A stretch of DNA of 60,823 nucleotides from a virus (lineage: Duplodnaviria > Caudoviricetes): the IMG/VR virus record IMGVR_UViG_3300021957_000035, positions 1 through 60,823 of that record. One strand, 5' to 3'. Positions 1,943 through 23,407 of the stretch are shown here, piece by piece. Positions within the stretch are counted from its first letter, which is position 1. Every line of letters starts with the position of its first letter. The notes under the pieces were generated by a model that saw only the letters and a program-made list of their open reading frames with translations, had not been told where the DNA came from and made no database searches. The position numbers and the translations under genes are program-made.

Positions 1943-2173
1943 TTATTTAATAATATCAACTAGTTCATCGATATTATCATCGTACATTTCCATGTAAAAG
2001 TCGTCATCAGACTCATGCATGTTTACACCAGAACACATGGCACCAAAACCGTCTTCAAATACATCAGTAACAGTTGCAGTTGGTATTTCTGGCATTGTTT
2101 CAAAAGCTTTTATTCGGATAATGCTACCTTCTTTAAGCAAAGGCAAAGTCCGACTTAAGGACGTCTCTGACAT
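1943..2173 (-). CDS. hypothetical protein
   Basis: ORF following the RNAP gene; start uncertain. Confidence 0.55.
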   Translation of the reverse strand: MSETSLSRTLPLLKEGSIIRIKAFETMPEIPTATVTDVFEDGFGAMCSGVNMHESDDDFYMEMYDDNIDELVDIIK

Positions 2174-4295
2174 TTAAGTTTCCTTTCTCTGGAATTAAAT
2201 CTTCTGAATCTAGTTGCTGCAGAATATTCTCAAGAGGCAAGCTCTCATAAAGTTCTACAAACTTTTCTCTAACATGATAAAACATCTTATCCATGTTACC
2301 TGCATGACAACCAAAAGAGTCATGTACTACAGTAGTTGGATAGTCTGCATCATGTATACACATAGTTAAGTGTACAGCATCAAGACTATGAACCACATTA
2401 GGTGCAGCACCAGTCTTCTGTTTAGTTTCATTTACAGTTGTTTCTTCCCACACTTGAAGCTGTACTTTAAGAATATCTTCACCGTACTTAAGCTCTGTGC
2501 GCTTATTAGTAGGCTTTCGATAGGCTTGTACAACAGGAAATCCAGTAACAGGGGAAATCCAACTCATATGAACTTTCTTCTTGTTAGCTCTCTCTGCTAA
2601 ACTCTGAAACATCTTAAGTAGCTTTGCTGGCCCCTTAAGCTCTTCATAACAGGTCTTATACACCAGAGCGCCAAGGAGTGCGCCCCAGAGATGCTCTTTG
2701 TCTCTTAGATAGGTAGATATATCTCTAGTGTCTTCTATTACCTGCTGGCCCATACCGTAGGACGTACCACCATAGCCTAGAGTCATTACATTTCTCTTAA
2801 CAGTCTTACGTTGAATTTTCTTATCTTGAATATTCAACCAGTATGTCGGAAATAATTTTTCTCGTAGGTCACGGTTTTGATTACGCCATGTTTGAGCAGT
2901 CTTAAAGGCTACAGACTTTCTTTCAGACTTATCAGGGGCAGTTTCATATTCTCTTTGAAGACTAACAGCTGTTTTAAATACTGCATCAAATTGGTTTTCA
3001 ACAGAAGTATCTCGTTTACGTTCTAAGTTTTCCCATACCTTTTCTGCTATAAACATATAAACATCTCCAGGCAACTCACTTGGAACAAGATTTACTAAAG
3101 GTGCTACTTCATCGTCTTGAGACATAGCTACAAGGTGTTGAACGCCGTTATTAGAACCATCAATGTAAACTGGAAGACAAGAAGGAAAGTCTTCTATATT
3201 TCCCTCCCACTCTGTTAACATTTTAATTTCATAACAAGCGGCAAGAAAGCTAAATGGTTTATCTGCTTTCATCCAGTCAGTGCTTGTCATTGGGTTTGTA
3301 GCATACTCAATAAACGTTTTTGCATTGTCTATTACAAACTGTACTCGATCATCTAGACTTACTTTGTCATTACCCCAAATGTTTGCAGTATGAACATAAA
3401 GCCAATAAACACCGTTTTCCCCTAGCGGTACAGGTTCGTCTAGCATTAAGATGCCTTTAGCATTGTCACTAGACTGCTCATGTAAGAACGCTGTATTAGG
3501 GTAAATACGGCCTCGGAAGTCGAGGTTATACAAGTGATAGAAAGGCTTGCCTACGTGCTTCTCTGCAAGTCTCTGAATAGCTTCTGCTTCAATGATTAAC
3601 GAGGCCCGTTTAATCGGATCAATCTCTTTAGTAAATTTAAAGGGATTAACTTCAGAGTGCATACACGCTTTGTACGTATCAAATACAAAGTTATTAATAC
3701 GCCAACCTGTATGATTAAGTCTATTAAGAGTGTCTACAATATAAGTCATATCACTATTTTCAAAGTGATTTAAAGCTGCTTCGTAGCCTTTTTTAATTAC
3801 ACTTATACCTGTTACTTCGTGATACGGGTCTTTATGCCAGTTTTCAGCAGGTGTGTTAACTGGAAACATATCACATTTCTCAATGTCTACTAAGTCCATA
3901 AGCTCTTTAATAGCTTTCCAGTCTTTAGCAAACAAGAAATAAGATCTATGCTTATCTTTTTTACCGTTTTTATAAGTATGTTTTTTACGATAACCTAGTA
4001 TACCTAACTCAATGTAGCTAATAATTACAAACCAACCACCTTGAACGTCTAGTACACTATTTTGTTTTTGTCTAAGTTTTTGTCTAAGTCGTCTGCCAAT
4101 ACTAGATGCGACTTCTACTAGAGTTGCTTTTCTCTCTAACCCTTTTAGTATGTGTGAATAAGAAAATTCAATAATATCTCTAGGTGACATTGTGTCTAAG
4201 AAACTTGCGGATTGTCTCTTATCTAATGATTTTTGTCGATATTCCAGATCTTCAGTTAATAGGTCTAGAATGGTTTTTTCTTCCATATATGTCAA
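2133..4295 (-). CDS. single-subunit T7/T3-type DNA-directed RNA polymerase (720 aa)
   Basis: DFRGRIYP; motif A IDGSNNGVQH; motif B RKTVKRNVMTLGYG; PNVVHSLDA; motif C VHDSFGCH. Confidence 0.97.
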   Translation of the reverse strand: MTYMEEKTILDLLTEDLEYRQKSLDKRQSASFLDTMSPRDIIEFSYSHILKGLERKATLVEVASSIGRRLRQKLRQKQNSVLDVQGGWFVIISYIELGILGYRKKHTYKNGKKDKHRSYFLFAKDWKAIKELMDLVDIEKCDMFPVNTPAENWHKDPYHEVTGISVIKKGYEAALNHFENSDMTYIVDTLNRLNHTGWRINNFVFDTYKACMHSEVNPFKFTKEIDPIKRASLIIEAEAIQRLAEKHVGKPFYHLYNLDFRGRIYPNTAFLHEQSSDNAKGILMLDEPVPLGENGVYWLYVHTANIWGNDKVSLDDRVQFVIDNAKTFIEYATNPMTSTDWMKADKPFSFLAACYEIKMLTEWEGNIEDFPSCLPVYIDGSNNGVQHLVAMSQDDEVAPLVNLVPSELPGDVYMFIAEKVWENLERKRDTSVENQFDAVFKTAVSLQREYETAPDKSERKSVAFKTAQTWRNQNRDLREKLFPTYWLNIQDKKIQRKTVKRNVMTLGYGGTSYGMGQQVIEDTRDISTYLRDKEHLWGALLGALVYKTCYEELKGPAKLLKMFQSLAERANKKKVHMSWISPVTGFPVVQAYRKPTNKRTELKYGEDILKVQLQVWEETTVNETKQKTGAAPNVVHSLDAVHLTMCIHDADYPTTVVHDSFGCHAGNMDKMFYHVREKFVELYESLPLENILQQLDSEDLIPEKGNLNVRDVLKSDFAFA

Positions 4296-4443
4296 TTTCC
4301 TTTAGTTAGGGCATTAAGCTATTGCTTCCCTTATGAGGAACTTTATTAACAATTATTTGTTTTGAATTATCATTACGACAATTAAATAAATAGCAATAAT
4401 TGTTAACATTATATCTTTCAAAAAAAAAAAAAGTTTTATTAAA

Positions 4444-4468
4444 CCCCCACCCCCGAAGGGGTGAGGGG
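4444..4468 (-). terminator. intrinsic terminator-like hairpin (UUCG loop)
   Basis: CCCCTCACCCC-TTCG-GGGGTGGGGG then TTTAATAAAAC and a long T run. Confidence 0.75.
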
Positions 4469-4475
4469 AATTTTA

Positions 4476-4727
4476 TTATCCTTCTAAACGAGGATTAATT
4501 GTATCAAGTGTTTTAATCCAGTTACGGATTGATTTTACACAGCAACCTATTTCAAAGGCTACGCTATGGATACTTTCGCCGTTAACTACACGGCTTGCTG
4601 CAATTACACGATCGCCATTATTCCAACCTTTTGTTTTAGTTTTAAAGTAATAAGGTTGACCATGTTTAATCACGTAGTTGAAACTCTTTGTAAGTTCAGC
4701 GATAGTCGGTGTATTAGAAATAGTCAT
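4476..4727 (-). CDS. small helix-turn-helix DNA-binding protein
   Basis: ATG at 4727 with AGGAG SD; C-terminal GESIHSVAFEIGCCVKSIRNW fits an HTH. Confidence 0.65.
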   Translation of the reverse strand: MTISNTPTIAELTKSFNYVIKHGQPYYFKTKTKGWNNGDRVIAASRVVNGESIHSVAFEIGCCVKSIRNWIKTLDTINPRLEG

Positions 4728-4736
4728 TATAGTTCT

Positions 4737-4858
4737 CCTAGCTAGGGTTGATATCAGCTGTGCAGCTGAAAAGACCCACTGCAAGCAATGGGCAAGTTAA
4801 ACTACACAGGGAGGAGTTTCCATGAAACTCAAAATACTCTTCGAAAAGAGTATGTAGT
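4737..4858 (-). ncRNA. candidate structured RNA or leader (five adjacent hairpins or palindromes)
   Basis: Inverted repeats at 4834-4853, 4814-4830 (both closed by 4801-4805/4854-4858), 4775-4792, 4754-4769 and 4737-4746. Confidence 0.45.
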
Positions 4859-4861
4859 GAT

Positions 4862-5047
4862 TCACGTTGGGGTATCAAAGTCGCCTTGCATTTCTGCAAT
4901 AGCATCAAAGATTTCCTCCATCTCAACTGTCGTATCAGGACAGTCTTCAGAGTAGTCAACATAAGTATGTGACCACTGTTGATCAATAGCTTTCACTAAG
5001 TTTGAGAAAGACATTGCTTCATAGTATTCAGGTGTTTTCTTAGTCAT
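4862..5047 (-). CDS. hypothetical early protein
   Basis: First ORF downstream of the class-1 motif at 5070-5095. Confidence 0.65.
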   Translation of the reverse strand: MTKKTPEYYEAMSFSNLVKAIDQQWSHTYVDYSEDCPDTTVEMEEIFDAIAEMQGDFDTPT

Positions 5048-5069
5048 ATTTAACCCTTTATGGTATCTG

Positions 5070-5095
5070 TTATAGATGCGTTATTTTTCTCACTT
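5070..5095 (-). promoter_or_regulatory. candidate early promoter, class 1 (AAGTGAGAAAAATAACGCATCTATAA)
   Basis: 25/26 identical to 7577-7602; mostly intergenic and upstream of a gene start. Confidence 0.7.
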
Positions 5096-5482
5096 ATAGA
5101 AGATGTGCTTACCAAGCTTAAACAGCATAGTGTGATGCTTAGCCCAGTATGGATTCACATAGTCTGCATGATAGTGAGTTGCGCCTTTTACATCTAAGGT
5201 AATTTCGTTATCAATAACCATTTGAGCAATCAACTGGCTGTCTCTCCAAGCTACTCTATCGACTTTAGCTGTAAATCTAGTAGGGTCATCATGTTTACCA
5301 TCGTGAGTCCAACTAAATTGTTTTTTATCCCAGACAACAGCACAAATATTGTCTGGGTGTTTTGGTGATTCAACACGGTTCATAGTAACTTCTGCGATAG
5401 CTACTTTCCCCATTAAATCTTCACCTCTACCTTCAAAGAAGATATTTAAAGCCAAACATGTGGCTGCTGCTGTAAGTAACAT
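5090..5482 (-). CDS. cell wall hydrolase (SleB / Hydrolase_2 family)
   Basis: CLALNIFFEGRGE, QFSW, GATHYHADYVNPYWA, GKHIFYK. Confidence 0.93.
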   Translation of the reverse strand: MLLTAAATCLALNIFFEGRGEDLMGKVAIAEVTMNRVESPKHPDNICAVVWDKKQFSWTHDGKHDDPTRFTAKVDRVAWRDSQLIAQMVIDNEITLDVKGATHYHADYVNPYWAKHHTMLFKLGKHIFYK

Positions 5483-5736
5483 TAGTCAATCATTCCTTTT
5501 TTGATTACTTCTTTACGTGTAAGCCAATTCATAAAGTTAAACAAATCTTGCATGTTTTCTAGCATGGTAGGATTTGCCCAATTAGCTTGGCCTTTATTGT
5601 GCCATGAAACTTCAAACCAAGGGTTAGAAGTCCAATCACACTTTATTACTGATACTTCGATATCATCAAAGTCTAGTAAGATTTGTTCATGGACATCTCC
5701 TTCCATGACGGTAAAAAATTCATTAAACTCAGCCAT
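5482..5736 (-). CDS. hypothetical protein
   Basis: AGGAG SD; stop overlaps the next start. Confidence 0.65.
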   Translation of the reverse strand: MAEFNEFFTVMEGDVHEQILLDFDDIEVSVIKCDWTSNPWFEVSWHNKGQANWANPTMLENMQDLFNFMNWLTRKEVIKKGMID

Positions 5737-5748
5737 GCTCTTGCTCCT

Positions 5749-6147
5749 TTAGCCGCCAGCGATTTCATTCCATATTCGTTTGTCCTTGTGCATAGTATAG
5801 CCTTCAGGACGGTAAAAGTTTTCCATATCTAAGGCTTCTTTGCGAGAAAGACCTTTATGTAATACTTGTAAACCTATTTGTTCTTTTCTCCAAAACTTTT
5901 CTAACATTTGAAGAACAAATCTTTTCTTAGATCTAAGCCCTAAATTTACTTCACGTAATTCTAGTATATAGCGTTGAATAATATCATCATCAGTGTTATA
6001 AGGGCAAATACCTACATAACCCCAACGAGGGCTTTTTCCATACCAGCCTTGTGTGTTGCCAGTATAGAAAAAATGATATACCTTGTAATCTTTAGTTTTA
6101 CAAGTTTCGTGATGAATTCGCATCTTATCAGAATACCATTTAGCCAT
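5749..6147 (-). CDS. hypothetical protein, possibly GIY-YIG-like
   Basis: VY...YVG...R...EALDME pattern, weak. Confidence 0.45.
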   Translation of the reverse strand: MAKWYSDKMRIHHETCKTKDYKVYHFFYTGNTQGWYGKSPRWGYVGICPYNTDDDIIQRYILELREVNLGLRSKKRFVLQMLEKFWRKEQIGLQVLHKGLSRKEALDMENFYRPEGYTMHKDKRIWNEIAGG

Positions 6148-6272
6148 TATTTGTTTTCCTTTATTAAATGCTGAATACCAAACATTATCCCTGCTGTAAT
6201 GATTCCGGCAAAACTAATAGCAAGAAGCAAAGATGTTGTTACAATCGTAAGTATTATTACAGCCTCAACCAT
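6147..6272 (-). CDS. small membrane protein (41 aa)
   Basis: Read by hand, MVEAVIILTIVTTSLLLAISFAGIITAGIMFG...; coupled to both neighbours. Confidence 0.55.
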   Translation of the reverse strand: MVEAVIILTIVTTSLLLAISFAGIITAGIMFGIQHLIKENK

Positions 6273-6462
6273 TTTCTTTTTCCTCTTCAGTGCGGAAGTA
6301 TTGAACTAATCTTAACTCATCAAGCTTAGAACGATATTTAGAAACAGAATCATACGCATCTGTATATTCTATTTTATCTTTCCAATGTTCTATCTCTTGC
6401 AAGATATCTTCATCAGACCAAGGTTGATAAACAGCTAACAAATGTTTTCCCCAACTTTCCAT
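6265..6462 (-). CDS. hypothetical protein
   Basis: Packed minus-strand ORF. Confidence 0.6.
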   Translation of the reverse strand: MESWGKHLLAVYQPWSDEDILQEIEHWKDKIEYTDAYDSVSKYRSKLDELRLVQYFRTEEEKENG

Positions 6463-6816
6463 CTATACCCCCATCGCAGATTCAATTTCAACAATAGTTT
6501 TCTTATCGCCACCCGTAAAGGTGACGTAAGAATCGTCTTCTGCCCAACAATGCAAATAAGACTCAAAAAAGTCTTTAGTAGGTTTGTATTCAGTAAACGT
6601 ACCGTGAATACTATCCCCTTCACACAAACTCTGTACAGTCACCAAATGAGGAGGTACCTCATCAAAGACTAAGCATACTACTGCACCTTTAGAGTACATA
6701 GCAGCTTTTTCATATGACTCACACCAATGAGTTATAGAACGTACTTGTTTACCCTCAAGCAGTTGTTGAGCTTCGGCGCGAGTTGTGCCTCTATATAGTC
6801 TTAAAACAACAGTCAT
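6463..6816 (-). CDS. possible ADP-ribosyltransferase-fold protein
   Basis: LYRG ... THWCES..KAAMY ... TEY resembles the R-S-E layout of ARTs. Confidence 0.45.
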   Translation of the reverse strand: MTVVLRLYRGTTRAEAQQLLEGKQVRSITHWCESYEKAAMYSKGAVVCLVFDEVPPHLVTVQSLCEGDSIHGTFTEYKPTKDFFESYLHCWAEDDSYVTFTGGDKKTIVEIESAMGV

Positions 6817-7103
6817 ATTTTTTTCCTCTTGGTTGATGTTGTAATTAAAGATGAAGTAGCTCGAAGTAATTCAGGTAAAAACAAACCTGTTATTACAAAA
6901 CCATTTATATACTCTAAATGAGCATATTCTTCATCTAATGAAAAATAATATACTATAGCAATAGCGCCAAGTATAGGTGGTAAAGAAGGAGTGTTTTTTA
7001 TTTTAAACACTTTTCCAATTGTTATCATAAACAAAATAACAATTATAAATCGCAATACTATTCCAAATAATACTGCAAAAGTTGAATCAATTACTATATT
7101 CAT
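6813..7103 (-). CDS. membrane protein
   Basis: About three hydrophobic segments. Confidence 0.6.
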   Translation of the reverse strand: MNIVIDSTFAVLFGIVLRFIIVILFMITIGKVFKIKNTPSLPPILGAIAIVYYFSLDEEYAHLEYINGFVITGLFLPELLRATSSLITTSTKRKKI

Positions 7104-7126
7104 TTTTAGTTTCCACTTGGTTTATT

Positions 7127-7144
7127 AAGCGACCGAAGCCGCCT
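7127..7144 (-). other. cUUCGg RNA hairpin
   Basis: AGGCGGC-TTCG-GTCGCTT with G-U pairs; intergenic. Confidence 0.55.
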
Positions 7145-7155
7145 ACTTTCGAATA

Positions 7156-7527
7156 TTAAACTTCACTATTTTCATTATAGAAATAGTTAGCAAGTTTTCC
7201 GTAAGTGTCGGACGCTAAGTTTGAAGCAGACGCGTAAGTATCAGATACAAACTCGGAAGTGTTTTCTGCAACATCGTACTCGTCAAAAACATAGCACGTA
7301 CCATCTACGGCTAAAAGACTGCCACCAACAACAGCACCAGTAACTGCGCCGTTAACAACTGCAATAGCAGGATTTCCGGTAGCTAATAAGGCAATGCCGC
7401 CGGATAACACAGCTGAACTTTTAACAGAGCCAGCAATGTCAACTCTTTCAACCCAGCTGCATATTCCAGCAGAAGCGGCAGTAGTAAGTGCAATAGTAGT
7501 AATGATAGATGCGATAAAAGTTTTCAT
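7156..7527 (-). CDS. exported or membrane protein
   Basis: ATG at 7527 with GAGG SD; signal-peptide-like MKTFIASIITTIALTTAASAG and a Gly-rich hydrophobic hairpin. Confidence 0.65.
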   Translation of the reverse strand: MKTFIASIITTIALTTAASAGICSWVERVDIAGSVKSSAVLSGGIALLATGNPAIAVVNGAVTGAVVGGSLLAVDGTCYVFDEYDVAENTSEFVSDTYASASNLASDTYGKLANYFYNENSEV

Positions 7528-7576
7528 TTGGATTTCCTCTCTGGTTTCCACTTGGTTTACTGAACTTATTAGTTCA

Positions 7577-7602
7577 TTATAGATGCGTTGTTTTTCTCAC
7601 TT
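7577..7602 (-). promoter_or_regulatory. candidate early promoter, class 1 (AAGTGAGAAAAACAACGCATCTATAA)
   Basis: Immediately after the tape-measure terminator, heading the small-gene block; near-identical copy at 5070. Confidence 0.7.
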
Positions 7603-7622
7603 TTTTAGCTGACTTTTTTGAT

Positions 7623-7649
7623 AAAAAAGGCCACTCCGAAGAGTGACCC
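7623..7649 (-). terminator. intrinsic terminator ending the structural operon
   Basis: GGTCACTC-TTCG-GAGTGGCC-TTTTTT. Confidence 0.9.
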
Positions 7650-7654
7650 TATAG

Positions 7655-10600
7655 TTATCTACCTTTGTAGTTATTTTCTTTGTTGGTTGCATTAACCCCT
7701 GCAGAAATAGTAGGTAGCATTTTAATAATTTCTTGTCTTGTTTGGCGAGATACGTCACCACTAATTGACAAGTTAACTACGTTTTGTTGCTTACTGGTAT
7801 TGTCTTGATATGACTTAACTTTATTAGCTGGAACAACTAATTCTCCTGGAGTTAACATTGCTGGAACACTATCTACCCCTGCTTTAGAGTAAGGAGTTGA
7901 AGGTACTATACCTCCGTTATTCATAAATAGACTTAACCCTGTAGAAATTAAACCCAGCCAGCCGCCGCCACTGGCACCGCCTGAACCGCCTGAACCGCCT
8001 TGAGGTTTAAGTAATGAGTCAAGTCCTAATTTTAACGACTTACCTAACCCCCCAAAAAAATCAGGAATTTTACCTATCATACCTAATAGACCTCCACCGT
8101 CACCAGTATCAGCTGTTAACCCTTGGACACCGTTTTTAATAGAACTAATTATACTACCAAAAAGACCACCTTCACCAAATAAAGGAGAAGTAAGTTCTTC
8201 GCCTTCTTTAGCCATAGGAGAAGCTTCACCTCCAAAGCTAGCTGCACCACCACCTAATTTTTGTAGTTGACCCATCATACCTGTAGAAGTATATTCTCCT
8301 TTATCTTCTTCTATAGTGCCAAATAAACTATCTGTAAAACCTTGGCTAAAAGAATTTAAATAATTTTTAGTAAAGCTATCTATTAAGTCAATTTGCATAA
8401 AGTCGCCAGTTTGCAAAGCTTCTCTAAATCCTGTTTGGAAATCATCTTTTATGCCTTGAGCAAAAGTTGCACCTAATGCCATTTCTCTTGCAGATAAAGT
8501 TAGTCCTTTAATAGCTTTTGCAACTCCATCTACAGCTTTATTTGCTCCTTTAGCTGCTATTTCTATTTCCTTTTTAAGAGCAATCTCTTCATTTTGTAAA
8601 GGAATTAATCTTTCGTTAATTAAGGCTTGAGCTCCAAGAGAATCATTCAGTACTTCAATATCACCATTAGCTTTTGCAGTTGTTTTTTTGGCGTCTTTAA
8701 GTTTATTTTCCCAATGATCTATTTCTTCTTGAACTCCTTTTAATTGCTGTTCTAAAGGACTAAGCTTTAGTTTAGGTTCTACAGCTGCCATGTTACCCAC
8801 AGGTATATTTAAACGAGAGTTGCCTGTGCCTTGTTGAAATCCTGCAACCATTCCGCTATTAATAGCTTCAAGTATAGGTCTAAACTTAGAAGTTTGTTTT
8901 GCATTTACAACAAATTCTTTATTAGAAAGCATAGCAGGAATTTTGTCGTCAGTAGGACCACCTTCACCTGTTACATAACCTCCTGTTGCAAATTTATTTG
9001 CTTCAAAAGATTTTTTCATTGTGTCTTTAAGACCAAAATTATTATAAAGAAATTTTACTATAGCTGCTTGGGATTTACCACCAATTGTTTTATTACCTTC
9101 TAAAAAAGCTTCATAAAATTCTTCAAACTCTTTAAGTTCAGTTACTTCTAATGAATCTTTAAAAGCTTCAGGAGTTAACGTACCTGATATCATAGACCCA
9201 GCCATATAAGAAGTTTGGCTAGCTCTTAAAGTTTTAAGAGTATCTTCTATATCAGCTAATGAAGTTTGTTTTAGAAAGCTATTTGCGTCAGCTTCTAAAA
9301 CGGTTCTATTAATCCTAGAAGGCCAAGAACTTATATAGTCGTGATCAGTTTTGCCATGACCTGGATTTTCTTTAGCCATATTTAAAAATTGATTAACATG
9401 TCCATATTCATGCAGCCCAACATTATACGCTTGTAAAAACTCATCAAGGCTGTCTGTTAACTTAGGTTCTTTTGTTTGTATGTCTAGAAAAGGGCTATCA
9501 AGAGTTTCATAATACTTTGGAATAACTTTTCCCTGCCAAGTATTATCTATGCTAGTAGATTGAAGACCTACTTTTTCTCGTCCAGAGGGTCTTTGAAATG
9601 ATTCTCTAACTAAGTTATAATGTCTCAACAAATAGTTTAAATCATAACCAGAAGCATCTATTGCTGCTTGACGTTTTTGTTCTTTATTTAAAAAAGATAA
9701 ATCTATTTTACTAAATTTATTTTTAAACGAATCAAAATCAGTAAAATCTAAACCACTTCTCATAGTTGAGTAATTAGAGGGTGCTATCATAGGATGACCA
9801 CGATCATCGTGAGTAGCTTTCTTTTCAAACATATTTAAATCTCTAGCATTACCCATATAGGTTCTATTACCAGAAAGTAAATAGTCTAAGCCACCCATAG
9901 CAGTATACATTGTACCACCAAGTAGCCCATAAAGCGCCGCTTGTACAGGTATACTAGATAAACCTAAACCAGTTTTAACAACACTTGAACCAAATCCAAG
10001 TGCTCCAGACAACAATTTTTTTGGATCACGATTAATTGTTCCTAATACTATATTTCCAAGTCCTTTAAAGGTTCCTAATATAGTTGAACTTAAACCTTTA
10101 AGCGCACCAAATGAAGCACCATACGCTGCACCTTCCGGTGCTAACGGCAAACCATTAAAGAAAGCTTTTCTAAGCTCCGGACCAAAACCAGTAATGTCAT
10201 CCCCTTTAGGTCCATAGAGTCCTTTTTCCCAACCTCTAACAAGTGGACGGTATTGATCAGATTTCCACCTACCACCGCCGCCAATTGCAGCACTAGCAAG
10301 ATTTGCAGTAGTCATTAATGCTTTAGGAATTGTTCTTAATCCATCATATTCAGGAAAATCTATTCCTAATTGCTTAGAAAGAACTGATAATCCTTTGTAA
10401 AATCCGTCAGGGCTATTATATGCATCTTTAGTACTTTTAAGTGTGCCTCTGCGAATTAGATGTTCTTGAATTGCATTAATATTACTTGGGTTTGTTCCTG
10501 TTTCTTTATTAACTAGCTCTATTAATTCTTTTAAAGAATTTTCATCTTTAACATTAATGTTAAGAGCAGGACTTAAATCAGGAGCGTGTTCATTTAAATA

Positions 10601-15038: not shown

Positions 15039-15046
15039 ATTTCTTC

Positions 15047-15286: not shown

Positions 15287-15309
15287 ACTATATCTTTCTA
15301 ATAAGTTAA

Positions 15310-15333: not shown

Positions 15334-15347
15334 AAAGTATTTTTAAT

Positions 15348-15878: not shown

Positions 15879-15881
15879 TTG

Positions 15882-16283
15882 TTATTCTCCGTATATTTTA
15901 AATGGTATTATATATTGTGCGCTATAAAGCGACTGATTAGCTGGGTCTAGCCCTTCTACATTTAAATAAGATTTTCCAAACTCTGTCTTATTAGTTAAAA
16001 TTTTATTTTCAAATGAATTGTCAAGTATATCTGATAATTGCATAATTCGGGTTTGTCCCTCACCTGCTTTAACAAATATTCTAACAATTAATAAACCTGA
16101 AAGGCTTTTATCACCGCCATAAGCTAAATGATCTGAAGCACTAGGAAGAATATTAAATCGACAAAATTCATTACTGTTTGAAATTGAACCCTGATAGTTT
16201 TCAGGATACATCGCTATGTTATTACTTGTCCAAGCTGATGAGGCAAAAACACTATTAACATCCGCTAAGATATTGTGAAACAT
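15882..16283 (-). CDS. tail terminator or completion protein
   Basis: Directly before the tail tube; GLLIVRIFVKAGEG pattern. Confidence 0.65.
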   Translation of the reverse strand: MFHNILADVNSVFASSAWTSNNIAMYPENYQGSISNSNEFCRFNILPSASDHLAYGGDKSLSGLLIVRIFVKAGEGQTRIMQLSDILDNSFENKILTNKTEFGKSYLNVEGLDPANQSLYSAQYIIPFKIYGE

Positions 16284-16284
16284 T

Positions 16285-16620
16285 TTAAGGTTCCTTTGTC
16301 AAAGTGGCTTCAATAGTGAAGTCGTTATCAGTGTGATCTGTTATATTGTAAACTACTGACCCTACAGTGAGTGTATCATAAACTGATAAATCAACGCCTG
16401 ATTTTAGAATAGCTTTATAATTAAAGCCATCTCCTGCAGGTCTTTCTGAAGACTCAATTATAACTGATACTGTAGCAGAAGTAGTAGTACTAACGGTATC
16501 ATCAGTAGCAAAATCATAGCTTGTAACTGCTTTAGTTGATAGTGTAGCAGTCTTAACAAGATCTCCTGTTCTATCAAAAGCTTTATTAACAGCAGCTGTT
16601 ACTTTTGCTGATAAAGACAT
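16285..16620 (-). CDS. head closure or stopper protein
   Basis: Position, size, beta-rich sequence. Confidence 0.55.
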   Translation of the reverse strand: MSLSAKVTAAVNKAFDRTGDLVKTATLSTKAVTSYDFATDDTVSTTTSATVSVIIESSERPAGDGFNYKAILKSGVDLSVYDTLTVGSVVYNITDHTDNDFTIEATLTKEP

Positions 16621-17126
16621 TAGTTAGCCCTCCACCAAGAAGAACCCATACCTTCAACGCCTCTCCGAATAAGATGACGTAAAGGTTTAATTACAATACT
16701 TGGTGTAATTGAAGTTCTTGTAACATCTCCATTAGTATCAGACAAGCTAATACTTCCAATAGAAATACTCTCAAAAGTTTGAGTAGTTTGTGCTAACAAA
16801 TCTTCATTGTTTAACAGATGCAATGCTTGTTCATAAACAGCAATTTTAACTGCATTAGGAATTTCTGACTCTGTAAATTTAACTTCTAAGTTTAATCTAG
16901 GATTATAATGAGAAGTATTTTTACGAGGCCATGCCAGAGCTTGGGAAGAACTAACAGCAGAACCAATCCAAGAACGATTGTCTATAAGCTGTGTAGCTGT
17001 TACTAATGCATCTTCTTTTAAAGCCTCTGCTGCGGTAGTCCAATTAGCACTATCGATGCGAGTCTCAAAATAAGTATCTGCAGCAGCAACGGCAACATAA
17101 CTATTAGTATTTAGAACTAAAGCCAT
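16620..17126 (-). CDS. head-tail adaptor (DnaT-like annotated family)
   Basis: NSYVAVAAADTYF, QALAWPR, IPNAVKIAVYEQAL. Confidence 0.75.
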   Translation of the reverse strand: MALVLNTNSYVAVAAADTYFETRIDSANWTTAAEALKEDALVTATQLIDNRSWIGSAVSSSQALAWPRKNTSHYNPRLNLEVKFTESEIPNAVKIAVYEQALHLLNNEDLLAQTTQTFESISIGSISLSDTNGDVTRTSITPSIVIKPLRHLIRRGVEGMGSSWWRAN

Positions 17127-17143
17127 TAGTCCCTCCTAACTTA

Positions 17144-18262
17144 TTATGAGTGGAAGACTGGCAAAATGCCCAAGTTCAGTGCGCTCATTTTACGAGTCCA
17201 AGATGCAGAAGCAGCATAAGTTGCGTTTGTAGCAAATGCGTTAGTTGCGCCTGACCAGTCATAGCCCATTGGGTGCATGATAAAGCCGTAACGATACCAA
17301 ATATTAGTTGAACCGCCACCAGTGTAAGAAGCCGCATTACGGTCTACTTCAACAGGAGTTGGAACATTTACAGGAGCAGAAGTAATTGAAGCTGGTTTAA
17401 TCAAGAAAGAACACTTAGTTGAACGAGCATTCAAGTCGCCTGAAGCAGCACCTGAAATCATTTGGTTTGCACGAGTCATAACCAAACGGAATTTTCCACC
17501 AAACACGGTTTGGAACTCAAGGTTGCCATCTTGTACACGAGTTTCGTCTACCAAGTTAGCAGCACGCATTTCAGCCATTGTTTCAGGTGAAGTTACGAGA
17601 TACATAAAGTCAGGTTCGTAGTCTTTGAAACCCATACCCAACGCTTTAAACAAACGTTCACCACGAGCAGCACCCGTAGCAGTTGAGTCAAACAAAGCAC
17701 GCTGATCAGATGCGCCTGTTGCAGCAGCACCAAATTCACCAAGTGCGTTAATGTCTACAAAGTGACCAGTGTTAGCAGCATCGCCATTTGTGTCAAATGC
17801 AATGTAACCACCTGCGCCTGAACCACCTTTGTCACCAAGAGTAACTTCGCTAAGTGCTACACCTTTAAGGCAAGACAACAAAGCATTACCTTCGTCATCA
17901 CCGCGTACTTGTGCAAAGTCACGAGCAATTTTGGCAAGACCATCTTGGCGTGAAACTACTTCTTGCAAATTAACTTGTTGCGCACCAAATGTACGAACAG
18001 TTTTAACGTAATCTGCAATGTCAGTTGTGATATCAGTGTAAGTACCATCTGTTGCACTTGACAGCGATGGAACGTTGATGTTAGCTGAAAGTGGCTTGTA
18101 GTAACGGAACTGACCAATAAAAGATTCGCCGTTAGCATTAATATCGTCACGTTGCCCTACAATACCTGAAGAATTTAGTTTCTTTTCAGTTGTGTATGCT
18201 TCATCTGCGTAAGCAGAGATAGCCAACGCTACGTTTTGAAAGTCTGTATTTGTAATAGCCAT
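17144..18262 (-). CDS. major capsid protein
   Basis: 372 aa following the scaffold; VEVDRNAA and YGFIMHPMGYDW coat-like motifs. Confidence 0.85.
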   Translation of the reverse strand: MAITNTDFQNVALAISAYADEAYTTEKKLNSSGIVGQRDDINANGESFIGQFRYYKPLSANINVPSLSSATDGTYTDITTDIADYVKTVRTFGAQQVNLQEVVSRQDGLAKIARDFAQVRGDDEGNALLSCLKGVALSEVTLGDKGGSGAGGYIAFDTNGDAANTGHFVDINALGEFGAAATGASDQRALFDSTATGAARGERLFKALGMGFKDYEPDFMYLVTSPETMAEMRAANLVDETRVQDGNLEFQTVFGGKFRLVMTRANQMISGAASGDLNARSTKCSFLIKPASITSAPVNVPTPVEVDRNAASYTGGGSTNIWYRYGFIMHPMGYDWSGATNAFATNATYAASASWTRKMSALNLGILPVFHS

Positions 18263-18291
18263 TTTATATTTCCTTGTATATAACTATCTTA

Positions 18292-18966
18292 TTAATAATT
18301 AAAACTACCTAGTTGCCCTTTGGCAGCAAGATTTAACACTTCTTGTGTTGACATCTCACTAAGTGGTTTGTTTTCATTAGTGTTTGAGACACCTGCTGGT
18401 GCCGCTGTACCCGCTCCTGAGTTAGCTTTAACTCGAAACAGGAATGAGTTATCTTCATTATCTGAGTAAGAGGTAATAAAGTCTTGAATAGTAGTGCCTG
18501 ACTTATGAACCCAACTACCGTTGTCATTCTGAACAAGTTGCTCAACAATATCACGGTAAGCTAGTTGACGACTACGATCATTGCGGAAATCTAAACTACC
18601 AAGCAATGAGTTAACAACGCTATCTCGATTTAACTTAGTATTCTCTTCTTCGTAGACTTTTAGTTTAGCTTCAAGATCAGCAATTTTCATTTCTGATAGT
18701 TCTTGAAGTTTTCCTTCTTCTTCGAGCCGCTTCATCGTTTCTTGTTTTTGTTGTTGTTCGATTTCAGCAGCTTTCTTAAGAGCCTCGTCTCGCTCTTTAG
18801 CCATGCGGTCAACATTAGACTTCATTTTAGAAAGTCTATTGGCAACCTCTTGTTCAATTGGATCAACCGTTTCAGATGTTTCCTCCTGAACATTTTCTTG
18901 TTCATTAGTCTCATTGGACTCTGTTGCAGTTACTTCTTCTTCAACTACTGTATTTTCTTCACTCAT
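18292..18966 (-). CDS. capsid scaffolding protein
   Basis: Acidic coiled-coil protein immediately before the capsid gene. Confidence 0.8.
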   Translation of the reverse strand: MSEENTVVEEEVTATESNETNEQENVQEETSETVDPIEQEVANRLSKMKSNVDRMAKERDEALKKAAEIEQQQKQETMKRLEEEGKLQELSEMKIADLEAKLKVYEEENTKLNRDSVVNSLLGSLDFRNDRSRQLAYRDIVEQLVQNDNGSWVHKSGTTIQDFITSYSDNEDNSFLFRVKANSGAGTAAPAGVSNTNENKPLSEMSTQEVLNLAAKGQLGSFNY

Positions 18967-18978
18967 AATATTTTCCTT

Positions 18979-19023
18979 TCAAGCACAGCTTGAGGTTAAT
19001 GTTTAATTTTGATTCACAGAATC
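18979..19023 (-). promoter_or_regulatory. tandem RNA stem-loops with an identical CUGUG apex in the scaffold leader
   Basis: GATT-CTGTG-AATC (19011-19023) and TCAAG-CTGTG-CTTGA (18979-18993), the latter abutting the SD. Confidence 0.5.
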
Positions 19024-19051
19024 TAAAAAGGTCATAGGCTATTACAAATAA

Positions 19052-22000
19052 CTATGGCCCGATACCATACCAGTCCTGCCCGTCTTTGAGCGGTGCTAGT
19101 ATGTCTTTTCTTGTTATTTTATTAGGAGGGTCAATAAGACCCTGATCTTTAGCTTCTTTAAGAAGCCTTTGGTAAGTTCTATAAGACATTCCTTGTCTGC
19201 GCATTTCTCTAAGGGTTTTTCTTATAGTATCGCCTTCTAGGGCATCTGCATAGATGGTCCTTAAAGCATCTTTTGCACGTCTTGCTTCACCTATATTAGT
19301 AAAGAAAGCATCGTGAATTGTTCCACTGTCTACGTTATTTTTACGCGCCCATAAATGAAAGCGCCTAACTATAACAGCATCGTTACTGTGGTTTCCATTA
19401 ACACCTAATCCAATCCTAGCATCATTAAGAGAGCCTTTACCTAAAAGCTTTCCGTCTTCAGCGCTGGATTCGTATATGTTAGATATTTTTCTGTTTGTAA
19501 CCGGATCTCTAAATTCAATACGCTCTTGAATTTTAGGACGGTATCTTTGTGTCATTATCTTGCCATCAAATGTAACCCACGGAATATCAACTTTTTGAGT
19601 TTCTTCAACGTAGGCTTTAGCAACTTGTTTCCAATAATTAATAAAATTATCAGTAACAGGTGCTCTATCAGCAAGATTTTTAGACATAATTCTAGATATT
19701 TCTGAGAACTCTTTTGGCCCAATAATACCCCTGCGAGCATTAGTAAGCTTATTAACAAAGTCACCAACATCAGGGTGTATATCTTGAGCTTGTTTTAATA
19801 GTGTACGACCAACAGGTTCGTTTTTATTAATTAACTCTAAGAGTTCGCTGCGAAAACTTTTAAGTTCTTCTACTGTACCTGTTGCACCTAATCGTTCGGC
19901 TACTTTAATTTTACCGTCAACAACTCTAAGGTTAGTACCTAGATTATCTTTAGTAACTGTTATAAAGCCTTTTTCGTCAAGTACTTTAGACAACTTATTA
20001 GCCACGTTAGCGGTTTTCGTAGCAGCTCCAGCGCCATAAAATGATACCATGTTTTGAGCTTTGGCTGCTTTAGCAAGATCTTCCCATGTAAGATTAGCAT
20101 CTCTGAGTGCAGGTATTTTAAGAAATTCTGGGTCATTTACTGTATCCATTGCAACTAAGTCATAAAGACGGTTTTTTTGAGTTGTAGCTAAAACATTTGA
20201 AGCTTGCGATACTGCCCTGTCGCCTGTAGAAAGCCCGATGATCTGAGCTCCACTGGATGAGGCATCATTTTCAATCATAAGTTTTGTTTTATAACTAGTA
20301 AGAGGTTTGTCTTGTTTAAGGTGTTTATTTATTCTAGCATATTCAATTGCCATTCTACCCATCTTAGGTACTTCTGGCCCTTCTAAACCCCGTATTAACG
20401 GATGTTCAAGAAACTCTCTTAGACGTCTGTCTCTTTGAGTTTTAGACATCATAATGTTACCTAGCTCAATAATCTTAGATTCATTACGTTTAAATATAGC
20501 ATTACGACCTGCTTGAGTAAGTGCTTCAGTTCCTGGACCGATTAAAGCTCCCATTTGAATTCTAAGTTCATCTAAAGCTTCAGTGCTCATATTAACAGCT
20601 TTACCTGAATTAAGAAAAGGTCTAACTAGTTCGCCGCCCGTAGGTGTAAGATATCCTCTGTGATATACTCGCCCCCTAGAATCAATAAACGCTTGAGTCC
20701 TAAAGTTTTTCCCTCTTTGAGCATGATACTTAGCAGTAGACATAAGTCCATAACCTTGTTCTCCTCGATTTAAAATTTCATGACGAAACTCATTAATACT
20801 GTCATAGTACTTAGATCTCCCTCTAGGATCTCTGAATCTAGCAATATCGTCCATAAACCCGAAGAACTCGTTATCAACTCCATATTCAACATCCATTACA
20901 TGATTAAGCATTTGAGCCATCTCACGATCAATTTGTTTAGGATCGTAATCTGGAAATTTATCTCTAGAGATTAAAGGTACCCCTGTTTCATTACCTCTGG
21001 CATCTACATATGTCTTTTTGTTAGCTTTTACATAAAGTCGATCTCTATCGTAAACAGTTCCAAGTCTTCTAGCAATAGTTACTTTACGTTCTGCTTCTTG
21101 AAGTTTAAGTAAAGTCTTATCTACAACAATTACTTCTCTAGAAATGCTATCTGCCCAACCACCTGAAGCTCTACCTGTATCTAAATCTAAAACACCTCTT
21201 CGAGTCTTACCTCTAAATTGAACTTTAATAAGGCCTTGATCTACCATAAAGTCAAGTATTTTAGATCCTTCTTTATGAAAGTCTTGCAAAGTATGTTTAG
21301 TAAAGGGTATGATATTCTCAAAATCTTTAGAAAATCTTTTTCCTATATTAATAGCTAAAGTATCATAATCAGTAGATTGCCCTGATGCAACTAGTTTAGC
21401 AATATTAGTTAAACTATCTAAAGCTTTTTCATCAAATAATTTAGAAGTAGGTTTTTTGTTTATAATTAAAAACTCAGCATCTAAAAGTCTACGTATAGTC
21501 TCTCTATTACGAGCAGCTAACTTAGTAATCAAAGAGTCAGAAGGTTCAGTTACTAGCTTTTGTAATTTTAAAAGTTTAGCAAAACCAGAATCTTTTTTTA
21601 ATTGCTTAATAAGTCGTTTTTTATTAGGATATTTATCAGTGAACTTTTTAAAATAAATTCTTAATGGCGCTCTGCCTTTAAAGAACATTTTAGTAGCTAA
21701 TTTTTTACCTTCAGTTCTACGCCATGCATCAATAAATCTTTGATCTTTTAGCTGGCTATCAATTAGGTTTTCAAAAGTATAATACTTACCCATAATTTGA
21801 ACTTGAGGTTTGTCTTGAGATAAATAACTAACAAACATTTCAGAACGCTTACGAGATCGTGTATCTAACAGCCTAGAAACGTTTTGAACAGCAAATCTAT
21901 TTTCTGCTCTTAATACAGCCGAAACATCATTCCAAGGTTTTTTATCTTTAGCATAACGTTCAAATACAACTCTTAAGTTTTCAATTACAACAGTTTGTTG

Positions 22001-23407
22001 ATTAACTGAAACTTTGTCATCTAATCCTGCAGCAATGCTTTCAATAAAATCTTTTTCATCTTGTTTAAGAAGTTTAGAATTACGCATAAAGTCAATACGT
22101 TCTTGATACAAGTTAAAATCAGGATCATAAATGTTATTGTTTTTAATTTCACCTGTTAACGGGTCAGCGCTAAAGTTACGTTCATCAAACTCGTTACCTA
22201 CTCTGCGCCTTGAAGCAGTTTTACCTGCAAGACTAGTACCTTTATAGTCTGTTAAAGACATAGTTTTAGAGTAATCATCAGCATCAAGTAAAAACATTTG
22301 CCTTACTAAAGCTTTCTGTTCTGGTGAGCGTAGCATAGAACTAGGGCGTTTAGCTTGAATATCTACTGCTTGCTCTCTAAGTTTTTGTTTAGGTGCAAAT
22401 ATAGCAGTAGCATTAGTAGCTTTATTTCTCAAAGCTTGAATAGACAATGCTTTACCTTTAGGTGTAACATACTGTTCAGCCTTAAGCCTTCCTTGTCTAA
22501 ATAAATTAGCTTGGTCCATTCCTCCAAGAAGTTTAGCTTGAATATCATAAGCTTGACGTTTTAACCATGCTCCGTAAGATTCTACTTTAGGTGCAACACC
22601 TGAAAGCGATTCTTCTTTCTTTTTAGCAAGGTTTGTTTTATTAAGTCTATTAGTGGTTTCTTTTTGAAGCTCTTCTTTAGATTTTAATACAGGCACCAAA
22701 GAACTACGACAATTCCAATGCAAAGGAGGAGTAAAGCGTCTATCGCTAACATCGTAAATCTTTCCATTATGATAAGAACAAATAGGGCTAGTACGGCTAT
22801 CAAGCACAGCAGTAAATACATAGCCTTTAACTACATGAGAATTTGCTTCTACAACTTTATTTAAAGCTGCTGTTTGAGTACTAGTTATAGAAGTTCTAGT
22901 TAAAGTTTTAGCCTGATGTTCAGTAAGCTTAGTAGTTTTAAGCACGTTGTTAATAATATCTTTAGGTGCTTCGCCTTTAGCAAGTCCTGCTTTTACTTTA
23001 GATTGTATTCTAACAAGTTCACCTGATGAAATGTTTTTCATATTTTGAGTAACTGTTTTAACACCTTTAATGTTTGATCCAGTTATTTCAGCAAGTAATT
23101 CTTTACTACGTGGCTTTGAAACCTTATAAAATTTATTTAGTTCTTTGTTTAGATTGTCCGAATGAAAGTCCAGTTGAGACGTTGAAAATTCTTTTAAAGA
23201 ACTAGTTTGATGAGTTAACATTTCTCGACCAAAGCGATTTACTTCAGGAGTAACATCATTAGTTAGTCTCTCTGAAAGAATGTCTCTTAAACGCTTCCTA
23301 TGCCTACGCATAATACGTCTGTTTTGTAACTGTACGCCTTCTTCGTATAATCTTACGTCAGTCATATGATCAACAATACGATCATAAAGTTTTAAATTGA
23401 TATCCAT
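19052..23407 (-). CDS. MuF (SPP1 gp7-like) head protein fused to a T7-superfamily RNA polymerase; putative virion RNAP
   Basis: N-terminus AVLDSRTSPIC...PPLHWNCRS (MuF); C-terminus DSRGRVY, ENDASSSGAQ, KAQNMVSFYG, NHSNDA, IHDAF. Confidence 0.9.
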   Translation of the reverse strand: MDINLKLYDRIVDHMTDVRLYEEGVQLQNRRIMRRHRKRLRDILSERLTNDVTPEVNRFGREMLTHQTSSLKEFSTSQLDFHSDNLNKELNKFYKVSKPRSKELLAEITGSNIKGVKTVTQNMKNISSGELVRIQSKVKAGLAKGEAPKDIINNVLKTTKLTEHQAKTLTRTSITSTQTAALNKVVEANSHVVKGYVFTAVLDSRTSPICSYHNGKIYDVSDRRFTPPLHWNCRSSLVPVLKSKEELQKETTNRLNKTNLAKKKEESLSGVAPKVESYGAWLKRQAYDIQAKLLGGMDQANLFRQGRLKAEQYVTPKGKALSIQALRNKATNATAIFAPKQKLREQAVDIQAKRPSSMLRSPEQKALVRQMFLLDADDYSKTMSLTDYKGTSLAGKTASRRRVGNEFDERNFSADPLTGEIKNNNIYDPDFNLYQERIDFMRNSKLLKQDEKDFIESIAAGLDDKVSVNQQTVVIENLRVVFERYAKDKKPWNDVSAVLRAENRFAVQNVSRLLDTRSRKRSEMFVSYLSQDKPQVQIMGKYYTFENLIDSQLKDQRFIDAWRRTEGKKLATKMFFKGRAPLRIYFKKFTDKYPNKKRLIKQLKKDSGFAKLLKLQKLVTEPSDSLITKLAARNRETIRRLLDAEFLIINKKPTSKLFDEKALDSLTNIAKLVASGQSTDYDTLAINIGKRFSKDFENIIPFTKHTLQDFHKEGSKILDFMVDQGLIKVQFRGKTRRGVLDLDTGRASGGWADSISREVIVVDKTLLKLQEAERKVTIARRLGTVYDRDRLYVKANKKTYVDARGNETGVPLISRDKFPDYDPKQIDREMAQMLNHVMDVEYGVDNEFFGFMDDIARFRDPRGRSKYYDSINEFRHEILNRGEQGYGLMSTAKYHAQRGKNFRTQAFIDSRGRVYHRGYLTPTGGELVRPFLNSGKAVNMSTEALDELRIQMGALIGPGTEALTQAGRNAIFKRNESKIIELGNIMMSKTQRDRRLREFLEHPLIRGLEGPEVPKMGRMAIEYARINKHLKQDKPLTSYKTKLMIENDASSSGAQIIGLSTGDRAVSQASNVLATTQKNRLYDLVAMDTVNDPEFLKIPALRDANLTWEDLAKAAKAQNMVSFYGAGAATKTANVANKLSKVLDEKGFITVTKDNLGTNLRVVDGKIKVAERLGATGTVEELKSFRSELLELINKNEPVGRTLLKQAQDIHPDVGDFVNKLTNARRGIIGPKEFSEISRIMSKNLADRAPVTDNFINYWKQVAKAYVEETQKVDIPWVTFDGKIMTQRYRPKIQERIEFRDPVTNRKISNIYESSAEDGKLLGKGSLNDARIGLGVNGNHSNDAVIVRRFHLWARKNNVDSGTIHDAFFTNIGEARRAKDALRTIYADALEGDTIRKTLREMRRQGMSYRTYQRLLKEAKDQGLIDPPNKITRKDILAPLKDGQDWYGIGP

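Follow-up and report, generated by a model that had tools for sequence, protein, structure and literature searches.

We analysed a linear viral contig of 60,823 bp (IMG/VR virus record IMGVR_UViG_3300021957_000035, estimated completeness 89%; this whole stretch is called the window below), in which the minus strand carries every sizeable open reading frame (ORF) and the genes are tightly packed. The window encodes two RNA polymerases (RNAPs) of the T7 type: a compact stand-alone enzyme, RNAP2, and a polymerase fused to a MuF head-morphogenesis domain, MuF-RNAP. It also carries two classes of promoter-like motif, class 1 (GTGAGAAAAAYAACGCATCTATAA) and class 2 (AATACCTGACGTTWAAGAA). The first-pass annotation had proposed that a virion-borne MuF-RNAP reads class 1 and so produces RNAP2, and that RNAP2 reads class 2 and produces new MuF-RNAP for packaging. 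Our comparisons bear this out in part: they support the pairing of RNAP2 with class 2, and we lean slightly towards the full two-polymerase cascade. The features concerned are collected in Table 1.

Judged by sequence, the window comes from a phage akin to the roseophages DSS3_VP1 and DSS3_PM1 (Naomviridae), in whose DNA deoxyuridine (dU) replaces thymidine, as stated in the main text of PMC8323127. These two are the closest isolates and the top matches for both polymerases (56% identity for RNAP2, 62% for MuF-RNAP, which is gp108, YP_010105321.1, in DSS3_VP1). Gene order from portal to RNAP2 is collinear between the window and DSS3_VP1, and the two share gene content, as expected within Naomviridae. 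Both isolates have the window's gene order around the two polymerase genes, a class-1 motif 3' of the tape-measure gene, and no fewer than 10 sites of the class-2 type; they differ from it in GC content (36% in the window, 47.5% in the isolates) and in the class-2 sequence at −12 to −8. Both polymerases were present in all six of the genomes at least 85% complete that were searched for both (the window, DSS3_VP1, DSS3_PM1 and the relatives G001, G008 and G009), and G003, 69% complete, gave only a MuF-RNAP-type match.

Table 1. Polymerase genes, promoter-like motifs and associated features of the window
Feature	Position	Strand	Basis
RNAP2, compact stand-alone T7-type RNA polymerase	2133..4295	-	Pfam, T7 alignment, AF2 model
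MuF-RNAP gene, 1451 aa, proposed virion-delivered RNA polymerase	19052..23407	-	Pfam, PHROG, position
MuF / SPP1 gp7-like head-morphogenesis domain, residues 59-334	22406..23233	-	phrog_241, PF04233
Helical linker domain, residues ~340-543	21779..22390	-	model
Full-length T7-like polymerase module, residues ~544-1451	19055..21778	-	model vs T7 RNAP
Class-1 promoter-like motif, copy 1, AAAAAAGTGAGAAAAACAACGCATCTATAATGA	7574..7606 (core 7577-7600)	-	motif scan
Class-1 promoter-like motif, copy 2	5067..5095 (core 5070-5093)	-	motif scan
Inverted repeat TGAACT-AATA-AGTTCA, predicted 5' hairpin directly after class-1 copy 1	7561..7576	-	
Terminator-like hairpin and T-run after tape-measure gene	7627..7650	-	
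Block of ten small genes headed by class 1	4476..7551	-	
Transmembrane (TM) proteins of the class-1 block	7551..7156, 7103..6813, 6272..6147	-	
SleB-type wall hydrolase of the class-1 block	5482..5090	-	Pfam Hydrolase_2 E 1.7e-23, hydrophobic N-terminus
Helix-turn-helix (HTH)-looking 102-aa protein of the class-1 block	4784..4476	-	by eye; no Pfam match
GC-rich hairpin (4444-4468) and T13 (4420-4432) upstream of RNAP2, proposed attenuator	4420..4468	-	
Class-2 promoter, subclass 2a, GTTAAAGAAC, heads gp2.5-like single-stranded DNA-binding protein (SSB) gene	1922..1940	-	
Class-2 promoter, subclass 2a, heads exonuclease, primase-helicase and ribonucleotide reductase (RNR)	59238..59256	-	
Class-2 promoter-like site, 2 mismatches, heads small genes and methyltransferase	53895..53913	-	
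Class-2 promoter, subclass 2b, GTTTAAGAAT, heads terminase and tail module	50915..50933	-	
Tandem class-2b pair (25942/25850), heads operon of portal, MuF-RNAP, scaffold, capsid and tape measure	25850..25960	-	

RNAP2 is 720 aa long when started at the TTG at 4295 and 717 aa from the ATG at 4286; the latter, with a better-spaced Shine-Dalgarno sequence, is the likely start. The protein matches the Pfam family RNA_pol (PF00940) with an E-value of 7.7e-88, and its HMMER alignment to T7 RNAP shows the signatures DGSnnGvQH, KRnvMTlgYG and HDSFG, in which the T7 catalytic motifs A (D537), B (K631, Y639) and C (H811, D812) are all found, together with the C-terminal FAFA. An AlphaFold2 (AF2) model (pLDDT 89.1) superposes on the T7 promoter complex 1cez_A with Z 35.3 and rmsd 3.6 over 653 residues, model residues 4-717 corresponding to T7 52-883; the N-terminal domain is also matched, and a specificity beta-hairpin is formed by strands 590-601 and 604-615. 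Alignment and model make RNAP2 look catalytically active, and it is shorter than the 883-aa T7 enzyme because its N-terminal part is compact. Between the two polymerases of the window BLASTP gave only E 0.024 over 142 residues, and an hhalign comparison of their alignments (E 0.0012, probability 19%, 17% identity) was used only for motif register.

Class 2 has seven matches in the window at up to three mismatches, against 0.01 expected. Six are in sense orientation, at 1922, 25850, 25942 and 50915 (0 mismatches), 59238 (1) and 53895 (2). As the first-pass annotation had it, the first of them lies just 3' of RNAP2 and others head the replication and structural operons, including the one that contains the MuF-RNAP gene. 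We take the motif to resemble the SP6 and T7 promoter sequences. It splits into two position-specific subclasses, 2a at replication genes and 2b at structural genes: within the window's clade the replication copies read GTTAAAGAAC in 19 of 19 cases, and the portal-operon copies read GTTTAAGAA[T/G] in 44 of 44. In relatives class 2 stays before the SSB, exonuclease, terminase-module and portal genes, but its sequence changes by lineage, from AATACCTGACGTTAAAGAAC in the window's clade to ACCAGGGGACGCTAAAG in G001 and G008, AATAGGGTGCGTTAAAGAG in DSS3_VP1 and AATACTGCCGCCTAATGACC in G009, where the differing sequence heads the same operons. Relatives whose RNAP2 is as little as 44% identical still have both motif classes at the same genes.

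RNAP2 is tied to class 2 because the residue-base pairs that covary between them are those that T7 RNA polymerase uses. Class 2 was laid on T7 geometry, with the final G of T[AT]A[AT]G as +1, and 21 loop columns were compared with 8 promoter positions in 14 lineages. At the position of T7 R746, RNAP2 has R wherever −7 is C (10/10), D or E where it is G (3/3), and V where it is T (1/1). At the position of Q758 it has K with A at −8 (7/7), R with C (3/3), Q with T (1), and D, E or W with G (3). The mutual information of the 746 column peaks with −7 (1.09 bits) and that of the 758 column with −8 (1.72 bits), each peak being reached by at most 1% of 1000 shuffles, in a register that depends on the chosen +1 and with about two independent changes estimated at −7. 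In the available text of PMC8874028 the T7 contacts are given as R746:G−7 and Q758:A−8, and the same four T7 loop residues are named as base-specific contacts in the part of PMC11880802 consulted. This is good comparative evidence, and it supports the first-pass assignment of class 2 to RNAP2, which would read it in the T7 manner; class 2 heads the MuF-RNAP operon in relatives also.

Two side observations concern class-2 sites. An antisense class-2-like site (ATTAGCTGACGTTAAAGAA, 44774-44792, plus strand), with an exact core and followed by a GC inverted repeat, lies inside the gene of a 1337-aa repeat protein, and is either an antisense promoter or a by-product of coding repeats. After the 50915 promoter comes a gene-free stretch of 321 nt (50603-50925, minus strand) with long-range inverted repeats CTTTGCTAAGGCTCTGCCAAAGTGATATC ... 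GATATCACTTTGGTATCCTTAGTG; its start is common to G004, and it is possibly a structured leader or small RNA. An Rfam scan of the window matched no family.

The second polymerase belongs to the head module, whose order is portal (25458..23887), a 149-aa ORF, MuF-RNAP, scaffold (18966..18292) and major head (18262..17144); the position between portal and scaffold is that of a MuF minor head protein. MuF-RNAP contains the sole MuF domain of the window (six-frame search with PF04233, 59.8 bits). Pfam finds Phage_Mu_F at residues 134-237 (E 1e-14, 55.7 bits against a cut-off of 29.6) and RNA_pol at 1028-1415 (E 6.6e-7, above cut-off), and PHROG finds RNA polymerase as well as head morphogenesis phrog_241 at residues 59-334 (E 1e-49). 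In a model of residues 340-1451 (pLDDT 78.2), the linker (block pLDDT mostly 84-94 over model residues 10-180) falls outside the part aligned to T7 RNAP, and a search of the ESM Atlas with residues 340-545 gave no lead. The polymerase module (model residues 205-1111) aligns with T7 RNAP 28-883 at Z 24.5-29.7, the matches being 8dh5_M (Z 29.7, rmsd 4.2, 548 aligned) and 1cez_A (Z 24.5, rmsd 6.9, 660 aligned); mitochondrial polymerases gave Z 19-27 and the virion RNA polymerase (vRNAP) of phage N4 gave Z 14.2-16.2. A phmmer search of MuF-RNAP against PDB sequences found no match.

Across 28 MuF-RNAP sequences of 48-83% identity, the DxRGRxY element and motifs A (D-A-S-x-S-G-A-Q), B (K..M..FYGAG) and C (HD-FF) are invariant; in the numbering of the 340-1451 piece these are D570, R572, G573, R574 and Y576; D709, A710, S711, S713, G714, A715 and Q716; K777..Y785 and G786; and H1026 and D1027. 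The C-terminal FAFA is absent from MuF-RNAP, which ends in ...DWYGIGP about 85 residues past motif C. From its motifs and model this polymerase, too, looks catalytically active. Its polymerase part is matched by 459 homolog protein clusters; among the best 120 of these, most are ~1450-1600 aa with both Pfam families, some carry one precomputed label, and a few are shorter. By these matches the MuF-polymerase fusion is common and the phage family abundant in marine metagenomes. Some relatives have interrupted polymerase genes: in G008 (L169) the MuF-RNAP gene (49184-54394) is interrupted near residue 1120 and about 780 nt are inserted in frame into the RNAP2 gene (6443-9409), and in EBPR siphovirus 1 (L101, 25771-31144) a gene annotated as HNH endonuclease interrupts MuF-RNAP at the same site as in G008, which suggests inteins or introns in both polymerase genes of some relatives.

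In other phages the MuF domain is a portal-associated minor head protein. From the MuF domain, the gene position, and the general view, expressed in the consulted part of PMC5512222, that MuF fusions are delivered with the phage DNA, we infer that MuF-RNAP is packaged in the virion.

Class 1 has two matches in the window at up to three mismatches, with 0 expected (100 shuffles). The first-pass annotation had placed the stand-alone RNAP at the end of a small-gene block headed by these motifs (7577, 5070), and motif, ORF and Pfam match were all recovered, the enzyme being 717-720 aa long. Class 1 stands 3' of terminator-like hairpins and 5' of ribosome-binding sites, and it follows the tape-measure gene in DSS3_VP1 and other relatives also. 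Its form in relatives, AAAAA-GTGAGAAAA-N5/6-GCATCTATAATGA, is nearly unchanged down to 44% RNAP2 identity. It occurs in 24 of the 25 loci that have at least 3 kb upstream of RNAP2, always in sense orientation and within 5.7 kb; one of the 24 (L156) has the variant GTGGGG...CCCTCTATAATGA. We counted 106 distinct instances in 89 loci, and one copy in DSS3_VP1 is the core only, without GTGAGAAAA. An inverted repeat follows no more than 3 nt past class 1 in 51 of the 106 instances (shuffle mean 3.1, maximum 10), with 15 compensating stem variants; class 1 itself contains no inverted repeat. A GC hairpin with a run of 7 to 17 T stands just before RNAP2 in all 11 relatives compared.

Lysis-like genes in the class-1 block, the hairpin and T-run before RNAP2, and the two class-2 subclasses had all gone unseen in the first-pass annotation. 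By sequence, the three membrane proteins and the SleB-type hydrolase of the block look like a lysis cassette. In G008 the hydrolase homolog is located elsewhere, and none of the window's block genes was found in the class-1 block; the content of the block thus turns over quickly, like that of early regions. The 41-aa membrane ORF of the block (6147-6272, minus strand) is missing from relatives, and contigs from 4 of 4 RNA-library runs join 6143 to 6269. Between the hairpin with its T-run and RNAP2 lies an 18-aa hydrophobic ORF (MLTIIAIYLIVVMIIQNK, 4353-4409, minus strand), with similar short hydrophobic ORFs there in relatives; it is a possible leader peptide.

Part of 1500-8000 is contained as contigs in 24 public runs. 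RNA-library relatives are 90-99% alike over 1-20000, and the RNA-library contigs compared over that range gave no transcript starts or ends. These contigs break at 7573/7574 and 7605/7606, the class-1 island being shared and its flanks divergent; we rejected the breaks as start-site evidence. Nor did we conclude from the position of class 1 which genome end is the first to enter. In G008 class 1 is 0.8 kb from the contig start, but the terminal repeat is exactly 127 bp, a length typical of assembler overlap, and other contigs that end in repeats have class 1 at 23.8, 8.9 and 17.9/23.3 kb. In a further lineage (loci L161 and L170 of G006 and G007, RNAP2 50-55% identical) no class 1 was found upstream of RNAP2 and no MuF was found, in contigs 33% and 27% complete; neither absence was counted as evidence. 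There a terminase gene on the opposite strand lies directly upstream of RNAP2, and the lineage could serve as a natural single-polymerase comparator if full genomes were found.

Which enzyme reads class 1 is harder to decide. RNAP2 probably does not, because its base-contacting residues differ widely among lineages that share class 1. On balance we think it somewhat probable that MuF-RNAP does. Class 1 is constant, and the specificity hairpin of MuF-RNAP is conserved with it: a fixed set of polar residues is found in 7 lineages, including G009 with its very different class 2. At the position of R746 MuF-RNAP has R in five lineages whose class 1 reads GCATC, and S in the G001 clade (nine contigs), G008 and G016, where it reads GTATC. 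A scan for the GTATC form found 40 contigs, and all 10 of the long ones picked from these contain MuF-RNAP. The repeat that follows class 1, read as a 5' RNA hairpin, makes sense only with a T7-like start of transcription at the TATA. The first-pass proposal that MuF-RNAP reads class 1 thus fits the constancy of motif and loop and the one R/S with C/T covariation, but with exceptions given below and with packaging an inference.

The closest competitor to MuF-RNAP as reader of class 1 is host sigma-70. In a scheme like that of T7, which we consider rather unlikely, sigma-70 would use TATAAT as its −10 element and so make RNAP2, which would read class 2, and the MuF-fused polymerase would do another job, such as DNA pulling, replication priming or boosting late transcription. 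Nearly every class-1 copy has a perfect TATAAT, a motif that hardly varies among deeply diverged phages fits a host reader that is itself universally conserved, an RNAP gene closing the first block with the first phage promoter next to it is the T7 layout, and the pairing of RNAP2 with class 2 holds equally here. Yet there is no −35 or TGn at sigma-70 spacing, a promoter scan did not flag class 1 as sigma-70-like, and sigma-70-like sites are not enriched in 1-20000 (66 against 61.6 +/- 7.2). Moreover GTGAGAAAA, GCATC and the TGA after the hexamer are conserved although sigma-70 does not need them, and hairpins no more than 3 nt from the hexamer end (51/106) would be only partly transcribed at sigma-70 spacing. 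The GC hairpin and T13 before RNAP2 should stop a bacterial polymerase efficiently, and more fully than a phage one; and the scheme would assign no promoter class to an intact polymerase that 459 clusters conserve.

The bipartite build of class 1, two conserved blocks with 5-6 variable bases between, lends itself to another scheme, in which host or phage polymerase reads class 1 only with a phage factor bound to GTGAGAAAA, much as T4 middle promoters depend on MotA. If TATAAT is the −10, the centre of the upstream block falls near −27 to −30, and a candidate factor is the 102-aa protein with an HTH-like ...SIRNWIK... end, conserved just before RNAP2 in relatives. The gene for this factor lies 3' of class 1, so that another starter would be required; the protein has no family match; and one DSS3_VP1 copy has the core but not GTGAGAAAA. 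We regard this scheme as quite improbable. Least credible of all is a reversed or shared assignment, with MuF-RNAP reading class 2 and RNAP2 class 1, or one enzyme reading both. Both enzymes do have T7-like folds with a specificity hairpin, and both motif classes fit T7 promoter geometry; but the RNAP2 loop tracks −7 and −8 of class 2 and class 1 does not change with them, the MuF-RNAP loop of G009 is ordinary despite its very different class 2, and if RNAP2 read class 1 the RNAP2 gene would be left without a starter. Two phages considered as single-polymerase comparators, Pelagibacter phage Kolga (which has an RNAP2-like gene and whose MuF bears no polymerase) and EBPR siphovirus 1 (a split MuF-RNAP and no RNAP2 in the partial record), were uninformative, neither having class-1- or class-2-like motifs.

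Several points weigh against the assignment of class 1 to MuF-RNAP and against the cascade built on it. G019 has R together with GTATC, and in L121 and L135 one copy in four is GTATC; the R/S with C/T covariation may in any case reflect a single evolutionary event. The perfect TATAAT and the near-invariance also suit sigma-70, a strong hairpin and T-run stands between class 1 and RNAP2, and the block contains lysis-like genes, though lysis genes are usually late. A comparison of specificity-loop with whole-enzyme identity did not separate the two polymerases. The class-2 covariation table holds one promoter copy per lineage, and its statistics ignore shared ancestry. Other promoters could lie in the roughly 11% of the genome that the window lacks, and the main text of PMC8323127 gives no virion proteomics for DSS3_VP1.

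The cascade towards which we lean would run as follows. MuF-RNAP would be built into the capsid through its MuF domain and then ejected with the DNA. It would initiate at the near-invariant class 1, as the comparisons faintly suggest, transcribe the fast-evolving block of small genes, and read through the hairpin and T-run, acting as an attenuator, into the RNAP2 gene. RNAP2 would then recognise class 2, a step well supported comparatively, in T7 geometry: the site has AATA at −16 to −13, bases that differ by lineage at −12 to −8, then C at −7, mostly A and T from −4 to −1, and its +1 is G. Replication genes would be transcribed from 2a and structural genes from 2b. The structural genes include that of MuF-RNAP, which would supply new polymerase for the next virions. 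Since relatives of this phage carry dU for thymidine, independence from host RNA polymerase would suit the family. We put forward more tentatively, as quite possible, that a widespread marine siphophage family including the dU Naomviridae transcribes without host RNA polymerase by means of two T7-type enzymes, the MuF cargo reading a near-frozen promoter and the other enzyme, made from the first transcript, co-evolving with its own promoters.

Other genes of the window were noted in passing. A MazG-like pyrophosphohydrolase (59416-59673, minus strand, Pfam E 1.6e-10) and a nucleoside 2-deoxyribosyltransferase-like protein (690-1130, minus strand, E 5.7e-9) may be part of a dU-DNA nucleotide pathway as in DSS3_VP1; no DNA polymerase or dCMP deaminase was found among the window ORFs scanned, in a contig 89% complete. 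Two large ORFs, of 759 aa (39680-41959, minus strand) and 1337 aa (41972-45985, minus strand), are built of degenerate 30-nt and 21-nt repeats and are probably repetitive fibre or decoration proteins; GC skew is unusual around 40-42 kb, at these ORFs. Between the exonuclease and primase-helicase genes, a 176-aa ORF (58061-58591, minus strand) containing FVYCIENLTTKQYYIGKK looks, by eye, like a GIY-YIG homing endonuclease.

Our literature search, with most subscription journals and supplements outside its scope, found no MuF-fused T7-type polymerase and no account of two polymerases in Naomviridae. In the founding DSS3_VP1 paper (PMC8323127, main text only, supplements being outside the scope), the terms RNA polymerase, RNAP and MuF have no occurrences. 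Cascades of virion and non-virion polymerases are known, in the portions of the literature available to us, from N4-like podophages, jumbo phages, crAss-like phages and P23-45, each with different protein machinery.

If the cascade is true, MuF-RNAP would be the first T7-kind RNA polymerase carried in virions of phages other than the N4-like ones, and the range of MuF cargo would extend from toxins to a polymerase. It would provide a rationale for the start of transcription in dU-DNA phages, two compact and mutually orthogonal polymerase-promoter pairs, and a natural series of specificity-loop and promoter variants following the T7 recognition code. The isolates DSS3_VP1 and DSS3_PM1, which grow on the tractable host Ruegeria pomeroyi, make the cascade directly testable.

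One precedent in logic is N4 and the Schitoviridae, where vRNAP gp50, a virion-packaged member of the T7 superfamily, is injected; the early genes that it transcribes encode a second T7-like polymerase, RNAPII, for the next gene class (consulted text of PMC4496689). The N4 vRNAP is ~3500 aa long, has flanking regions for injection and encapsidation, is a metallopeptidase-type fusion, and was reported only in N4-like podophages in the part consulted of a 2017 survey (PMC5512222). In contrast, MuF-RNAP is a 1451-aa MuF fusion of a siphophage in which Pfam found only MuF and RNA_pol, and its fold is nearer to T7 RNAP (Z up to 29.7) than to N4 vRNAP (Z 14.2-16.2). The promoters of N4 vRNAP are DNA hairpins, whereas candidate class 1 looks double-stranded and T7-like; late genes of N4 are transcribed by host polymerase.

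T7 and the Autographiviridae share with the window an enzyme of the T7 type whose gene ends the first block with its first cognate promoter directly next, and the promoter geometry and the R746/−7 and Q758/−8 contacts appear conserved in RNAP2 and class 2. The class II and III promoters of T7 are comparable to the subclasses for replication and structural genes. T7 has one polymerase, of 883 aa against the 717-720 aa of RNAP2, and uses host polymerase for its early genes; the window phage is a siphovirus with a 2082-aa tape measure.

In Thermus phage P23-45 the pre-early genes, among them that of a second, non-virion polymerase, are transcribed by a polymerase fused to a virion structural protein (consulted text of PMC10770324), but its polymerases are two-barrel enzymes akin to those of cells and it is the tape measure that serves as carrier, whereas those of the window are single-subunit and T7-type and the carrier is MuF. 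In Bacillus phages AR9/PBS1 and Pseudomonas phage phiKZ, too, virion and non-virion polymerases give host independence, and AR9 DNA has uracil in place of thymine (available text of 10.1101/2021.08.30.458274 and PMC9209446); these polymerases are multisubunit and the phages jumbo myophages. MuF polymorphic toxins and effectors have the same build of an N-terminal MuF and a C-terminal enzyme thought to be delivered with phage DNA, but the cargoes in the part of PMC5512222 consulted are toxins, RNases, ADP-ribosyltransferases and similar proteins, with no polymerase mentioned there. The window thus seems to follow the cascade logic already known with new parts, an ordinary-sized T7-type polymerase carried on MuF in a siphophage together with a compact T7-type enzyme.

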